Counted from the stretch's first letter, positions 5,617-47,399 are shown. The stretch is 64,000 nt of DNA from an uncultured Lentimicrobiaceae bacterium (GCA_964420555.1 CAYQTT010000005.1:151613-215612); one strand, 5' to 3'. Numbers and translations are program-made. Notes: generated from the sequence alone by a model not told the origin.

Positions 5617-5688
5617 AGACGCGATGCTCGCGTCTCTATCCGGAGACGCGAAAATCGGGTCAACGCGGAGACGCGAACATCGCGTCTC
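5617..5688 (+). repeat. Three tandem copies of the GAGACGCGA-N3-TCGCGTCTC hairpin family
   Basis: 5617..5635 is AGACGCGAtgcTCGCGTCT. 5643..5661 is GAGACGCGAaaaTCGGGTC (degenerate). 5668..5688 is GAGACGCGAacaTCGCGTCTC. No T-run follows any copy. Confidence 0.75.
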
Positions 5689-5731
5689 TACGGCAATAAA
5701 AAATCTTTACTAACCCAAATCTTTTAAACCA

Positions 5732-8010: not shown

Positions 8011-8463
8011 ATGACAAAGCCAAAAGCAAAAAACCTTATCCAGAAACCGACTCCTACCAAGCCGCCGGTTCTTGGTTCTGATCCGGGACCGGCTCCATCA
8101 CTGAAGCCTGATCCTGATAACCTCACCAACGTGGTGGAGAATGGCACTGATCCCATGCTTGAGAAAGCGGCTGATGATGCCACTGCTTCAGGAACTGACA
8201 AAGCTCCTGAAGGTGACAAAGCTCCTGAAGGCGACAAAGCTCCTGAAGGTGACGAAGCTCCTGAAGTATCGGAAGCTGAAACGCAGACCGAGAAAAGGAA
8301 GGAACGTGCCAGGGAAGTTTTCGCTAATCACGATATCCCTGAGGTGTACTTTACCAGCGATGGCAATGCGTTTACAAAGCATATGTATGCCAGTATGCAC
8401 TCCACCAGCCTGCCAAAAGGTATGGAAGAGGAAGTAACCACCATTAAAAGATCGGAGGTATAA
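8011..8463 (+). CDS. Hypothetical phage protein with Pro/Lys-rich N-terminus and (D-K-A-P-E-G)x4 repeat
   Basis: 150-aa ORF, packed tightly between the lysis genes and the sheath gene. Confidence 0.55.
   Translation: MTKPKAKNLIQKPTPTKPPVLGSDPGPAPSLKPDPDNLTNVVENGTDPMLEKAADDATASGTDKAPEGDKAPEGDKAPEGDEAPEVSEAETQTEKRKERAREVFANHDIPEVYFTSDGNAFTKHMYASMHSTSLPKGMEEEVTTIKRSEV
8197..8268 (+). repeat. 4 x 18-bp in-frame tandem repeat GACAAAGCTCCTGAAGGT
   Basis: Units at 8197, 8215, 8233 and 8251. The fourth is degenerate (GACGAAGCTCCTGAAGTA). Confidence 0.9.
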
Positions 8464-23849: not shown

Positions 23850-23965
23850 CACGCCTCTCCTTGTCTCGCTAGGTCACCCCTCGCCTTGTCGCCTTGTCGC
23901 CCCTCGCCTTGTCCTCTCACCTTGTCTCCCCTCACCTAGTCCCCCTTCCCCTTGTCTCACTGTCC
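23850..23965 (-). repeat. Word-stutter island, GACAAGG(C/T)GAGGGG(C/A) family (read on the minus strand)
   Basis: The plus strand reads ..ctccttgtctcgctaggtcacccctcgccttgtcgccttgtcgcccctcgccttgtcctctcaccttgtctcccctcacc.. It lies directly 3' of the DUF218 gene. Confidence 0.85.
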
Positions 23966-24694: not shown

Positions 24695-24757
24695 AGCGAT
24701 TTTATACCTGCTTCAATGTCAGCTTTTGAATATTTTTTGATAATCACAAAATTACTC

Positions 24758-24994
24758 TTATCAATCTCATCAATCCCCTCAATCCCTTCAATCCGCTGGA
24801 AGAGACAAGGCGACAAGGCGAGGGGCGACAAGGCGAACTTCTAACCGGAATCCCTTAAATCCTATCAATCTCATCAATCCGTTGAAAGAGACAAGGCGAC
24901 AAGGCGAGGGGCGACAAGGCGAACTTCTAACCGGAATCCCCTCAATCCCCTCAATCCCGTCAATCCCCTCAATCCCATCAATCCCATCAATCAC
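24758..24994 (+). repeat. Composite repeat island: TCAATCC 9-mers, 54-bp perfect direct repeat, 6 x 9-nt tandem array
   Basis: The 54-mer agagacaaggcgacaaggcgaggggcgacaaggcgaacttctaaccggaatccc occurs at 24801..24854 and 24887..24940. The array (C/G/A)TCAATCCC x6 at 24941..24994 runs into the stop codon of the upstream gene. Confidence 0.9.
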
Positions 24995-25497
24995 CTCTGA
25001 ATAAGAAACAACGGCGTCTCAATCACATTACTGTTATTCAGGTCGCGGTCGCGGATATAGATTTCGAAAGCAATAGTGTCGCTTTTTAATATTTGCCGGG
25101 CAAAATACAGTTCGAGGTACATCGTAATATCACCTTTAATATTTTTATTTCGCCCAACAGGGGTAAGCAATGGAATACGGCCATTAAAAGTAAGGGTGCT
25201 GTCAACTGGTTTTACTTCAACCAGTTCGTTGTTGACTAGCTCCATGAATTTTAGGTAGAAATTGTATTTCTTTGGTTCCACCGTATCCCAGGCGAATAGC
25301 CCGATATTGCCATCTCCATCGGTGTACGAAATGCTGATTGCTCCCAGAGAATCCTTGCCTGTAATATCCTTAGCTGTTGCAAATCCGCCAAACTCAATGT
25401 GTGGAATTATCGGATACTGTTCTTCCTTAATGCAGGAGGTAAGCCCAGCCACGATCGAAATCAGCAGAAAAAATGTTATCTTTGTGTATATTTTCAT
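24991..25497 (-). CDS. Lipoprotein of unknown function
   Basis: 168 aa. MKIYTKITFFLLISIVAGLTSC ends in a lipobox Cys. Confidence 0.6.
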   Translation of the reverse strand: MKIYTKITFFLLISIVAGLTSCIKEEQYPIIPHIEFGGFATAKDITGKDSLGAISISYTDGDGNIGLFAWDTVEPKKYNFYLKFMELVNNELVEVKPVDSTLTFNGRIPLLTPVGRNKNIKGDITMYLELYFARQILKSDTIAFEIYIRDRDLNNSNVIETPLFLIQR

Positions 25498-25520
25498 CTG
25501 TAATTAATTTGTTTTTTAAA

Positions 25521-25597
25521 GGTCAGATGGAATACGCCAGATTATTATTAATCTCATGCCTGGTTGGTGATTTATTCCAATCATGGCTATTTCATTC
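25521..25597 (+). ncRNA. Candidate structured RNA element, copy 1 (strand uncertain)
   Basis: P1: ATGGAATAcGCC (25527..25538) pairs with GGCTATTTCAT (25585..25595). P2: AGATTA/TAATCT. P3: GTGATT/AATCAT. There are two further copies at 30.6 kb with compensatory changes. Confidence 0.45.
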
Positions 25598-25635: not shown

Positions 25636-26625
25636 ATGGACTTCACCGCATTTAAACATAGTATTTTTAATCTGCAAAGCCCTTTCGAGTTTAACGAAAT
25701 TGCAGTGAGTTTATTTCGATATCAATACAGGGAAAACGAAATTTATAGAAGTTTTGTTGATGCCCTTGGTGTGAGCGAGAGCCAGGTGTACCACCCTGAG
25801 CAGATTCCTTTTCTGCCTGTCAGTTTTTTTAAGACGCATAAAGTAATTTCAGGCGGTTATTCCGAAGAACTTATTTTCGAAAGCAGCGGCACTACCGGCA
25901 TGGAAACCAGTAAACATTACGTGGTGGATGCATCCTGTTATCAGGAAAGCTTTACACGCGGACTTCAACTAGCTTACGGTGATTTGTCGCAGTATGTTAT
26001 TTTCGCGCTGCTGCCATCGTACCTGGAGCGTAAAAACTCATCGCTGGTGTATATGGTTGAGAAAATACTGTTGCAATCGAACCGTCAGATGGGTGGATTT
26101 TACCTGAATGAATTAGATGAATTGCACCATCAGTTGGAAGAAGCACAGCGACTTGGCTTGAAAATCATGCTTATCGGCGTTACATTTGCCTTGCTCGATA
26201 TGGCTGAGAAATTTCCCATCAGCATACCCGATGCCATAATTATTGAAACCGGTGGCATGAAAGGCCGGCGCAGCGAAATTACCCGTATGGAACTGCACGA
26301 ACAGCTTTGTGAAGGATTTGGAGTACAGAAAATCCATTCGGAATATGGAATGACGGAGCTTTTATCGCAGGCCTGGTCGGCAGGGGACGGTATTTTCCGC
26401 TGTCCGCCCTGGATGAAAGTAATGATAGCTGACACCAATGATCCGTTGAGTTACCTCGAAACAGGCCGTTCGGGCGGAATAAATATAATCGACCTGGCAA
26501 ATTTTCATTCCTGTTCCTTTATCGCCACACAGGATCTTGGTCGTGTTTTCGACGATGGAAGTTTCGAAGTACTGGGCCGTTTTGATAACAGCGATATCCG
26601 TGGTTGCAGCCTGCTGGCTAATTAG
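25636..26625 (+). CDS. Acyl-protein synthetase / LuxE-like adenylate-forming enzyme family protein
   Basis: 329 aa. The N-terminal pattern (..FRYQYRENEIYRSFVDALGV....IPFLPVSFFKTHKV) and the SGTTG motif are as in Bacteroidota LuxE-like proteins. Confidence 0.55.
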   Translation: MDFTAFKHSIFNLQSPFEFNEIAVSLFRYQYRENEIYRSFVDALGVSESQVYHPEQIPFLPVSFFKTHKVISGGYSEELIFESSGTTGMETSKHYVVDASCYQESFTRGLQLAYGDLSQYVIFALLPSYLERKNSSLVYMVEKILLQSNRQMGGFYLNELDELHHQLEEAQRLGLKIMLIGVTFALLDMAEKFPISIPDAIIIETGGMKGRRSEITRMELHEQLCEGFGVQKIHSEYGMTELLSQAWSAGDGIFRCPPWMKVMIADTNDPLSYLETGRSGGINIIDLANFHSCSFIATQDLGRVFDDGSFEVLGRFDNSDIRGCSLLAN

Positions 26626-26858
26626 GAGAGAAGGAGACAAGGCGAGGGGCGACAAGGCGAGGGGCGAATGGCGACGAGATCAGAAGTAAGATGAGGAGAC
26701 AAGGAGACACGGGGACAAGGAGAGGGGAGACAAGGCGAAGAGCGGCAAGGCGAGGCTAACCCCTAAACCTATAATCGAGCCAAGCAAACTCTGAAATCTG
26801 AAACTAGAAACCAGAAACTTGAAACCAGAAACCTCTCCCCAAACCCCCAACCCCTAGA
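26626..26858 (+). repeat. Tripartite word-stutter island (GACAAGGCGAGGGGC block, GAAAC(C/T)AGAAAC block, C/A-rich CCCCAAACCCCCAACCCC block)
   Basis: Read directly from the sequence. It fills the whole spacer between the LuxE-like gene stop and the SRAP gene ATG (26862). Confidence 0.85.
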
Positions 26859-29743: not shown

Positions 29744-30577
29744 TTAATCGCTTTTTACCAGAGCTGCAGCGCCCAGCAATGCTATATTTTCGATTTGCGA
29801 CTGCTGTATTGTCAATTTCTTAATTGTTTCAGGAAACTGAAAATCATCCATTGCTTTTTTCATTGATTCTTCAAAAAAAGAATATGCCTTTGATATTGAA
29901 CCACCTAATACAATTGCTTCAGGGTCATAGGTATAAACAACCGCTTTCATTGCGTTACCAAGATGTAAACCATAGTCGGCCCACAATTTTAAAGCAGTTT
30001 TTTCACCCATTCCCGCTTTGTTTTGGGCTTCCAATGCAGTAGTTCGATGCATGGATTCGAAAAATGAACTGCTGGTGTAAAACTCAAAATTTTTATCCAG
30101 ATAAGGCAGAGACCCGATTTCACCTGCACCGCAATTACTGCCGGAATAAAGTTCGTTATTAATAATAATACCTGCCCCGAGGCCTGTGCCAAGTGCCAGG
30201 GCAACAAAAGAGGTGAACGATTTAGCTCCACCATATCTGTGCTCGCCCAGTGCAAAACAGTTTACATCATTATTGATGTAAACAGGAATTTTGAATTCAT
30301 TCTCCAGAATTTTTTTTAGCTCAACCCTTTTCCACGAAGGAATGTTTACAACATCAAATACAATACCGTTTTCAACGTCAACCACAGAGGGAACCCCTAT
30401 GCCTATTCCTTTCACCAATGGGTTTACTAATGGCGCTACAACAGAAATGAGCTGCGAAAGAGTCTTTTTCAGCGAATCTTTTTCAGTTAATAAAGCATGT
30501 TTCACTGAAAGAATTGCGTCTCCTTCTATTAACCCTGCCCTGATATTTGTTCCGCCTAAGTCAATGCCTATTTTCAT
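29744..30577 (-). CDS. ROK family sugar kinase (glucokinase-like)
   Basis: 277 aa with MKIGIDLGGTNIRAGL (ATP-binding motif) and Gly-rich ROK segments. Confidence 0.8.
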   Translation of the reverse strand: MKIGIDLGGTNIRAGLIEGDAILSVKHALLTEKDSLKKTLSQLISVVAPLVNPLVKGIGIGVPSVVDVENGIVFDVVNIPSWKRVELKKILENEFKIPVYINNDVNCFALGEHRYGGAKSFTSFVALALGTGLGAGIIINNELYSGSNCGAGEIGSLPYLDKNFEFYTSSSFFESMHRTTALEAQNKAGMGEKTALKLWADYGLHLGNAMKAVVYTYDPEAIVLGGSISKAYSFFEESMKKAMDDFQFPETIKKLTIQQSQIENIALLGAAALVKSD

Positions 30578-30598
30578 GTGTTATTATTTATTTTTTTA

Positions 30599-30677
30599 CG
30601 GGTCACATGGAATACGCCAGATTGATTATAATATCATCTTCGGTTGGTGATTAAATCCAATCATGGCTATTTCATCT
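30599..30677 (+). ncRNA. Candidate structured RNA element, copy 2
   Basis: P1: 30607..30618 pairs with 30665..30675. P2: AGATtGAT/ATCATCT. P3: GTGATT/AATCAT. A T-rich tract follows. Confidence 0.45.
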
Positions 30678-30696
30678 GTTTATTTTTTAATTTTTA

Positions 30697-30770
30697 CGGG
30701 TCAGATGGAATACGCCATGAATAATCATTTCGGTTGGTGAGCACTTTTTCTGCTCATGGCTATTTCATTT
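30697..30770 (+). ncRNA. Candidate structured RNA element, copy 3
   Basis: P1: 30705..30716 pairs with 30758..30768. P2 is shortened (ATGA/TCAT). P3 is replaced by GTGAGCA/TGCTCAT, a fully compensated stem. A T-rich tract follows. Confidence 0.45.
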
Positions 30771-33980: not shown

Positions 33981-34009
33981 CAAAGCTTCTTGAGATCAGG
34001 GAAGAGCGA

Positions 34010-34185
34010 TATGGATGGGGAGACAAGGGGAGGGGAGACAAGGCGAACTTCAGTCTGCCTTCTTCCAACTCCGGTCTTCCGACTTCCGACTTCGTTCTTC
34101 CAGCCTCCCGAATCCTATTACTGCCTGATATCATATTCAACCAATCCGAACAAATCAAAAACCAACCCCAACCCCCATACTTCAT
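34010..34185 (+). repeat. Tripartite word-stutter island (GAGACAAGG block, CTTCC/GACTTCC block, CCAACCCCAACCCCC block)
   Basis: It shares GAGACAAGGCGAACTTC with the 24.8-kb island. It ends 10 nt before the ATG of the next gene. Confidence 0.85.
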
Positions 34186-40593: not shown

Positions 40594-40660
40594 TGTCCCC
40601 ACGCCGTGACAGCCCCGTCGCCTTGTCGCCCCTCGCCCTGTCGCCTCTCTCACTATCTCC
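40594..40660 (-). repeat. Word-stutter island, GACAAGGCGAGGGGC family (read on the minus strand)
   Basis: The plus strand reads gtccccacgccgtgacagccccgtcgccttgtcgcccctcgccctgtcgcctctctcactatctcc. Confidence 0.8.
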
Positions 40661-47021: not shown

Positions 47022-47201
47022 ATGCCCTCCTGAGATTATGTATTGTTAATGTGATAACACGTAAAAGAATAAAAATTCCAATTTTTTAGGGCTGCAAAAT
47101 TAGTTATTTTTCAGTCACTTCCGATAGATAACTTATAGTTTTATTGCTATTTAGAATATATATAAGTAAGGGGAATTTATCCGTGAATGGAAAAGTTACA
47201 A

Positions 47202-47336
47202 GATTGATGAGATTGAAAGGATTGATGAGATTGAGGCCGGAATATCAGAACCTGAATCCGGGGAAGAAAGTTTGATGATTGATGAGATTGAAAGGATTGA
47301 TGAGATTGATAGCGGAATACCAGAACTTGAATCCGG
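47202..47336 (+). repeat. Word-stutter island: GATTGAnnn 9-mers arranged as two ~59-bp imperfect direct repeats
   Basis: GATTGATGAGATTGAAAGGATTGATGAGATTGA occurs at 47202..47234 and 47277..47309. Each is followed by (g/a)gc(c/g)GGAATA(t/c)CAGAAC(c/t)TGAATCCGG. The words are reverse complements of the TCAATCC words at 24.9 kb. Confidence 0.9.
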
Positions 47337-47399
47337 ATTAGAGCGTTTTACTATTCGGGATTTTCTCAATACGTCGGCTCTTTCGCTGCACCCTGCAGA

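Follow-up and report, generated by a model that had tools for sequence, protein, structure and literature searches.

A probable family of short mobile DNA repeats that inserts at ATGAA and rebuilds start codons in Bacteroidota

The small repeats of bacteria are mostly portrayed as extragenic hairpins or as MITEs (miniature transposable elements with inverted repeats). In repetitive extragenic palindromic (REP) elements a tetranucleotide stands at the foot of the hairpin, and these elements are handled by REP-associated tyrosine transposases (RAYTs). Elements of the IS200/IS605 group insert 3' of a 4-5-nt target that is chosen by a guide beside a subterminal hairpin, and they usually show a replication-strand orientation bias. 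The guide principle, by which internal bases are complementary to the cleavage or target site, was reportedly worked out for IS608 by Barabas in 2008 and by Guynet in 2009. Here we describe a short repeated element that occurs three times on the minus strand of a 64,000-nt stretch of DNA from an uncultured Lentimicrobiaceae bacterium (GCA_964420555.1 CAYQTT010000005.1:151613-215612; the whole stretch is called the window), as a tandem pair directly upstream of a gene for a ROK-family sugar kinase and as a single copy upstream of a lipoprotein-like open reading frame (ORF). These units are probably members of a family of non-autonomous mobile DNA repeats of about 92-98 nt that is widespread in Bacteroidota and may have moved as single-stranded DNA, and the mobility of the element as such can be stated with high confidence. 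A Bacteroidetes-specific Y1 transposase subclass, 2.6, with "atypical secondary structures" has been described (Quentin et al. 2018, PMC6006769); its repeats are short GC-rich hairpins with GCTAG or GGTAG feet, and none of the subclass 2.6 sequences given in that paper matches the element.

The three copies in the window were scored with a covariance model for the element that was built from the copies of relatives, and over the 64 kb this model finds copies A, B and C only, the remainder being at noise level, so that chance is no explanation for the three units. Copy A (25498-25595, 113.1 bits) adjoins the 168-aa lipoprotein-like ORF (24991..25497, minus strand) on its upstream side, while the gene-proximal copy B (30578-30675, 122.8 bits) and the distal copy C (30676-30768, 67.8 bits) stand head to tail upstream of the 277-aa ROK kinase gene (29744..30577, minus strand; Pfam PF00480, E = 1e-44). 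Copy B belongs to a subfamily with a GATTGG..AATC hairpin and copy C to one with a GAGCA..TGCTC hairpin and a short second hairpin. All three copies measure 93-98 nt, start at the 5' end with ATGAAATAG, share the 5' sequence ATGAAATAGCC (longer form ATGAAATAGCCATG), continue with the invariant CACCAACC, TGGCGTATTCCAT(C/G)TGACC and an A-rich tract, and finish as NNN immediately ahead of ATGAA. Copy B thus extends from its 5' ATGAAATAG to the final base ahead of the ROK ATG; the ATGAAA that follows it (30572..30577) is the start codon and second codon of the ROK gene, that is, the target or a regenerated start, and the ATGAAA 3' of copy A (25492..25497) is the start of the 168-aa ORF. One ATGAAA is common to the tandem copies, being 3' of C and 5' of B. 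An initial annotation of this stretch, made from the sequence alone, had noted an ATG-AAA-TAG at the start of each unit, and it is indeed seen in all three copies, as a mini-ORF at 30760..30768 that represents the former ROK start, two codons long and closed by the first triplet of the element, and at the equivalent positions of copies B (30667-30675) and A (25587-25595). The exact 33-nt phasing from CCAT(C/G)TGACC to the next ATG, noted at the same time, applies to all three window copies but not to the family, in which the CCAT-to-ATG distance is 30-34 nt. The window contains no tRNA gene and no Rfam family at gathering score (Rfam 15, whole window), and a permissive Rfam scan of the tandem region gave only noise (snoRNA, miRNA and hairpin-ribozyme matches, E 0.5-10).

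Orthologous sites occur as empty, one-copy and two-copy alleles, which shows precise, orientation-specific insertion. In the relative L168 (loci of relatives are given here by L numbers), whose ROK protein is 91% identical at the amino acid level and whose upstream M28 peptidase gene is the same as in the window, the ROK site is empty: it has a single ATGAAA without the element and reads ...acaataagATGAAAATAGGC, i.e. ...gtattcagacaaaattacaataag-ATGAAAATAGGCATTGATTTAGG. At the window site a homologous leader is followed by ATGAAA-[C]-ATGAAA-[B]-ATGAAAATAGGC. ROK orthologues further removed are also without the element, but relatives at 76% identity or less (JGI scan) lack ATGAA as well and are therefore uninformative as empty sites. 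The 168-aa lipoprotein-like ORF belongs to no Pfam family and has 205 homologues, many of them at 96-99% identity. Its site is empty in L181-L187 (85-89% protein identity), where the divergent genes lie 40-41 nt apart around ...ttaactaagcga-ATGAAAATATACAC with a single ATGAAA, the sequence at the start site being gcgaATGAAAATATAC; it is occupied once in the window, by copy A, and twice in L171-L180 (97% protein identity), in which copy A, with 2-3 substitutions, is followed at the gene-proximal ATGAAA by a second copy of another subfamily that has a 46-nt nested module inside. Among the options offered by the initial annotation, that of a small mobile element bounded by ATGAAA-like direct repeats and landing at start codons is borne out by these alleles, and the comparison of orthologous loci that it had proposed favours mobility, since occupancy differs and ATGAAA is single when the site is empty and present on both sides when it is filled.

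A strict, three-part pattern scan of species-representative genomes, with CACCAACC as part of the search pattern, gave 85 loci, all in Bacteroidota, and a covariance-model search of these relatives' loci gave 93 copies of the element. The carriers are mostly metagenome-assembled genomes (MAGs) of Lentimicrobiaceae and other Bacteroidales, with more than 20 loci coming from a single MAG, and seven genera of Flavobacteriales have one element locus in common. In an alignment of 67 distinct copies, ATGAAA marks the left border and NNN-ATGAA the right one, with unrelated sequence beyond both; ATGAAATAG is invariant, and so is CACCAACC in 67 of 67 copies, though it was included in the search pattern. 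In the source metagenomes the contig depth is about 115 over the element and about 10 in its flanks (a more than 10-fold excess), contigs part ways at 30571-30573 and at 30675/30676, so that the repeat boundaries appear as loose contig ends, and short-read contigs with the ROK gene end 40 nt upstream of the ROK ATG; no joint that skips a unit was seen among the DNA contigs of these metagenomes. No match to the element was found in plasmid and phage collections and IMG/VR, a full-text literature search with four of its 12-13-mers returned unrelated papers only, and nothing equivalent was found in the literature on Bacteroidota MITEs at start codons. Neither Rfam nor the annotated collections of plasmids and phages nor the literature searched describes the family, while its absence from all literature is not proven.

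The copy shared by the Flavobacteriales follows immediately on the stop codon of a gene for a glutaminase (Pfam PF04960) in L003:900-1440, L010, L012, L017, L018, L032 and L052. The glutaminase block is 99% identical across the seven genera and ends in ...ATGAAAACTGTACACAA, with divergence beyond and with some attC-like ends (GCAAAACGTTAGGTGC), and it looks like a horizontally moving cassette that took the element out of Bacteroidales.

Insertion is at the pentamer ATGAA, in one orientation throughout, with ATGAA(A) on both sides afterwards. In 41 of the 93 copies (44%) the 3' ATG coincides exactly with the first codon of an ORF of 90 codons or more, because genes in the carrier genomes start most often with ATGAA(A): among the long genes of the carrier loci 40% start with ATGAA and 30% with ATGAAA. 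It is therefore true, as initially remarked, that both downstream genes in the window begin with ATGAAAATA, but this is not special to them. The left flanks of start-site copies are rich in A (48% A and 9% G) and in this resemble native leaders (43% A and 10% G). Unoccupied ATGAA sites number 152 at gene starts, 1559 inside coding sequence and 617 elsewhere; coding sequence is avoided by the element, and starts are about twofold enriched when set against the rest of the non-coding ATGAA sites. Copies away from starts are found some dozens to some hundreds of bases upstream of a co-oriented ORF or in tandem arrays, and about eight point at a convergent gene's 3' end or sit antisense between two genes.

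The pentamers on the two sides behave differently: of 74 well-aligned copies, 9 have a 5' pentamer other than ATGAA (TTGAA, ATAAA, ATTAA, ATCAA), and none has a deviant 3' pentamer. The sixth base is fixed by the element on the 5' side, with A in 90 of 93 copies, and varies with the host on the 3' side (A, T, C and G in 77, 10, 5 and 1 copies), so that at most five bases are duplicated. This asymmetry of the flanks suggests that the 3' ATGAA may travel with the element, in which case the start codon would be donated, not copied. Since each insertion leaves ATGAA at both sides, a second element can insert alongside the first, and tandem neighbours are usually of different subfamilies (C and B in the window, and the arrays at L043, L021, L016 and L171), and are therefore independent insertions and not local duplications. 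The true ends of the element are not inverted repeats (TAGCCATG... and ...AATAACAG), and its sole inverted repeat is internal.

This internal repeat forms helix P1, in which ATGAAATAGCC pairs with GGCgTATTCCAT; one G is bulged out, and there is a mismatch of A and C, which is G.T on the opposite strand. P1 encloses two unlike inner hairpins, P2 and P3, in one branched hairpin domain, to which a terminal helix 3 is added by pairing of CAT-NNN with NNN-ATG, so that the downstream ATG lies inside a helix. In copy B the 5' arm of P1, ATGAAATAGCCA, is at 30664..30675 and its partner TGGCGTATTCCAT at 30607-30619; the unpaired CACCAACC (30642..30649) lies between the two inner hairpins, and the 5' arm of helix 3, CATGTG (30604..30609), faces CACATG at 30575-30580, which includes the ROK start codon, across an A-rich loop of 23 nt (30581-30603). 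Compensatory changes are found in P1 (U-A to C-G in the diverged subfamily of L027/L057), in P2 between subfamilies (GATT/AATC, GAGCA/TGCTC, GAGAA/TTCTC, GGTAA/TTATC, TGTGA/TCACA) and in the triplet of helix 3, which covaries as CTG/CAG (51 copies), GTG/CAC (25) and GCG/CGC (7). Paired cells make up 92.8-95.2% of the alignment compared with 85.0-87.6% in shuffles, and pairing falls to 21-42% when the partner columns are shifted by 1-3. P1 and helix 3 are rivals for one CAT; in a tandem array they fuse into a 14-bp helix of GGCGTATTCCATCTG with CAGATGAAATAGCC. Inside the element, GGCGTAT-TTCCAT-NNN has complementarity to each of the two junctions, and its NNN covaries with the three bases that end the element. 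On the gene-sense strand ATAG adjoins the GCCATG... stem on the 5' side; it does not vary in the main family and is replaced by CGAG, with a compensating change, in the diverged subfamily.

Some copies carry nested, hairpin-shaped modules of 19-50 nt, which are restricted to loops or bulges, so that the paired framework is what is preserved. The modules are of four kinds (examples are CCGCCTGCATCGGGCAGGC, CCTGCCTGCAGCAGGCAGG and AACCTTTAGCTCACGAA..CGTGAG) and are found after GTATTCC (L030, L041, L042, L075), after CACCAACC (L019, L035, L071), in the A-rich tail (L016, L019, L074) and at the P1 bulge (L011, L045, L050, L085, L171-L180); L029 and L071 differ by the presence or absence of one module, a clean difference of 19 nt. 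As to the strand, the plus strand folds more stably than the minus strand (-20 to -22 vs -12.5 to -14 kcal/mol, with modest z-scores). The initial annotation had seen a conflict with its leader model in G-U pairs that favoured the plus strand, but this signal comes down to one position that never varies, in an abundant subfamily the G-U lies on the minus strand instead, and when every helix is counted G-U and A-C are balanced at 30 each; judged from sequence, no active strand is revealed.

When the element inserts at a start codon, the old ATG AAA stays behind the native leader with the TAG of the element next to it, and the 3' part of the element supplies the 23-nt A-rich tract and NNN-ATGAA, leaving the coding sequence unchanged and its start intact. 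The two-codon ORF is then the decapitated original start, and both the mini-ORF and the "leader" are outcomes of insertion at start codons. The idea of a 5'-leader cassette with a two-codon upstream ORF, put forward initially, describes this outcome well but not a conserved regulatory device, given ROK orthologues without the element. In the folded sense RNA the probability that the real AUG is unpaired is 0.00-0.06 in filled alleles and 0.12-0.47 in empty ones, with the A-rich loop open, and by this folding model resident copies may lower or condition translation through a CAU-NNN/NNN-AUG helix that hides the real start. Metatranscriptome contigs, which are unstranded, span the upstream flank, the element and the gene, indicating read-through without giving its direction or ends. 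Between copy A and the orthologous copy of L171-L180, 2-3 positions are changed, the bulged G among them, in almost identical flanks, so that no excess conservation is seen here. With three orthologous pairs to go by, exaptation as a translational element may have taken place.

In the reading that we prefer, the element would be moved in trans as single-stranded DNA by an enzyme of the Y1/HUH type, IS200/IS605- or REP/RAYT-like, with TTCCAT as the guide by which ATGAA is chosen. The lack of terminal inverted repeats, the compensated hairpins, the xTAG at the stem foot and the junction-complementary guide together make such movement by HUH/Y1 chemistry the most likely route, and an HUH-type enzyme is a tentative candidate for the mobiliser, reasoned by analogy with the described groups. 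Several results weigh against this reading. No mobilising enzyme was found, a motif scan over 1.1 Mb of element loci revealed no IS200-type TnpA, and a search for element halves split around a gene, as in an autonomous parent, found only the nested hairpin modules of 19-50 nt. One RAYT-like ORF was detected (L045:587-1246; NCBIfam REP_Tyr_transpos E = 4e-15, below the curated cut-off; PDB 4ER8 E = 3e-4). Its distance of about 1 kb from a tandem element pair, on one side only, counts in favour, as does the Y1 subclass on record for Bacteroidetes, but it has its own, different GC-rich GTAG repeats, and the occurrence of a single gene of this sort in 0.7 Mb has no significance. No element copy flanks a RAYT gene in the loci of relatives. 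The orientation of the element with respect to local GC skew shows no significant bias, at 40 vs 27 loci (p = 0.14, a weak test in 8-kb windows and confounded by gene strand), the element has a single compound hairpin and not separate left-end and right-end hairpins, and its junction sequences would equally be given by a 5-bp target-site duplication from another kind of transposase. On the side of the host, the translational effect is a folding prediction and wobble counts single out no active strand, while two orthologous pairs are better conserved in the element than in the flanks, with 100 of 100 positions identical against 89-90% in L029/L071 and 99 of 101 against 89-95% in L047/L083, an excess that hints at a host-level constraint which a purely selfish element would not need.

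The region around the RAYT-like ORF (L045:1-1300, minus) has features of its own. The ORF is both interrupted and flanked by its own REP (GTGTCGGGGTGACGAAAAGTCGCCCCGACAC, GTAG foot), a long array of tandem units of about 60 nt (AAATCAAGCCCGTT...) comes after it, and a gene for a PIN-domain toxin lies between this region and the tandem element pair. In the window itself, a GC-rich hairpin, GAGACGCGA(G/A)CATCGCGTCTcTACG, is present in two copies that are 87% alike (2430-2460 and 5668-5698) and resembles the REP-type hairpins of Bacteroidetes Y1 subclass 2.6.

Two other routes of movement would account for part of these data. A classical MITE, moved by a DDE transposase through cut-and-paste or copy-and-paste with a true 5-bp ATGAA target-site duplication, would explain why ATGAA is found on both sides of the element and once in empty sites, and small size and high copy number fit it well; it is nevertheless unlikely, because the ends TAGCCATG... 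and ...AATAACAG are not inverted repeats, the orientation relative to an asymmetric target is strict, and in the nine otherwise consensus-like copies with unequal pentamers the deviant one is always 5'. Very unlikely is a site-specific recombinase that acts on a folded single strand, in the manner of integron attC sites or of CTX-phage/Xer systems, with ATGAA as crossover core. Such an enzyme would be in keeping with oriented insertion and a short core common to both ends, the bulge and mismatch of the hairpin are comparable to the extrahelical bases of attC, and the Flavobacteriales copy lies in a block beside attC-like sequence; the element, however, is without the R'/R'' GTTRRRY core, and copies are scattered over hundreds of sites, without an array at a single attI. 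An integrase was not seen in the vicinity, yet this is a weak point, as only a scan for Y1/HUH motifs was made.

The remaining explanations start from a function in the host. A cis-regulatory 5'-leader RNA of the riboswitch, thermometer or upstream-ORF type, whose copies spread secondarily, would account for covarying helices, one of which pairs the start codon, for the predicted occlusion of the start in filled alleles, for the metatranscriptome contigs that run from the upstream flank through the element into the gene, and for the two orthologous pairs that are better conserved than their flanks. As the primary nature of the element this is quite unlikely, since the downstream genes are mutually unrelated, ROK and lipoprotein orthologues exist without the element, over half of the copies are away from gene starts and about eight are convergent or antisense, near-identical copies occur within one genome, and there is no Rfam match. 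The pair of plus-strand small-RNA genes that the initial annotation also considered, which would abut the minus-strand starts by chance, is most improbable: it could draw on the more stable plus-strand fold and on the G-U pair of the closing helix on that strand, but z-scores are modest, G-U equals A-C overall with one subfamily's G-U on the minus strand, and neither a sigma-70-like promoter nor an intrinsic terminator was seen in a scan that did not include Bacteroidota promoter types. Insertion polymorphism and the fixed relation to ATGAA would also be left unexplained by such genes, and the contexts of the copies are heterogeneous.

The preferred reading, a non-autonomous repeat moved as single-stranded DNA, brings the element close to three described kinds, with each of which it can be compared. 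Like the REP, BIME and REPIN repeats with their RAYTs, it is short, non-coding, extragenic and multi-copy, with several subfamilies per genome; at the stem foot of its hairpin a conserved tetranucleotide, in this case ATAG, adjoins on the 5' side, it is without terminal inverted repeats, and its mobilisation is presumed to occur in trans by a single-copy gene, RAYT-like genes being present in at least one carrier genome. It differs from them in being AT-rich, branched and about 95 nt long, whereas REP elements are GC-rich hairpins of 20-40 nt or inverted doublets, and in having a defined pentamer target regenerated at both ends, an A-rich tail and a start codon. With the IS200/IS605 elements and their PATE derivatives it shares an oriented position beside a 4-5-nt target, the absence of inverted repeats, a subterminal hairpin and guide-like complementary bases, and one of its flanking pentamers looks host-derived and the other element-borne. 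In contrast to these elements, the two ends seem to be served by a single compound hairpin and a single guide, pairing extends across the junction with three covarying bases of the element taking part, and no tnpA, tnpB, full-length parent or strand bias was seen among the element loci. The Correia (NEMIS) elements of Neisseria, ERIC and RUP are likewise dispersed repeats of about 100 nt that are co-transcribed with flanking genes, can be tandem or nested and alter the structure of 5' untranslated regions, but they have terminal inverted repeats, duplicate short unspecific targets (TA in Correia) and insert in either orientation, and we know of none that lands on a start codon and rebuilds it. 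The family is set apart from all three kinds by its ATGAA start-context target, the rebuilding of start and leader, the branched AT-rich fold and a single guide for two junctions.

A wider proposal, rather unlikely in its entirety, joins these features in a mobile "portable translation-initiation region" that is open to exaptation by the host, in which an enzyme of single-stranded DNA would use the TTCCAT guide to find the commonest start context. As part of this joint reading, the element would bring its own stop codon, an A-rich tract for ribosome landing and ATGAA; its CAU would pair either with the decoy AUG, in P1, or with the real AUG, in helix 3, and ribosome traffic on the decoy ORF, or temperature, would set the exposure of the real start.

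Other repeats are present in the window. Its intergenic spacers contain runs of 9-nt units (AATCCCCTC and variants) and G-rich 15-nt modules (GGGGCGACAAGGCGA), at 24754-25005, 24800-24928, 26624-26759, 23860-23946, 33995-34052 and 40612-40647, and the two kinds together make up an 86-nt tandem duplication at 24763-24934. The spacer from the 168-aa ORF to a DUF218 gene is 297 nt in the window and 14, 108 or 244 nt in relatives, so that these modules vary between strains too. An 18-nt in-frame repeat (GACAAAGCTCCTGAAGGT and variants) lies at 8160-8266 inside the ORF 8011-8463, and a 75-nt tandem duplication with GATTGATGAGATTGA units occupies the spacer 47192-47341. Additionally, some of the database ROK proteins of 292-329 aa have N-terminal extensions of 15-50 residues compared with the 277-aa form; in one of 292 aa (P0001) the called start is upstream of the true ATGAAAATAGGC start (L168, gene 147-1025, ATG at 192), so that the extension is a gene-calling artefact in the A-rich leader.

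Bacteroidota do not depend on Shine-Dalgarno pairing. The rebuilding of a start codon together with an A-rich leader would explain how genes survive with the element sitting at hundreds of their starts. Alleles of one gene that are empty or hold one or two copies can be compared directly and amount to a natural experiment on translation initiation, and the element offers a testable case of guide-programmed target choice in a phylum whose own Y1 subclass, with its "atypical" repeats, is poorly understood. Furthermore, short-read assemblies are interrupted by the repeat exactly where genes start, and it can lead to spurious N-terminal extensions in gene calls.

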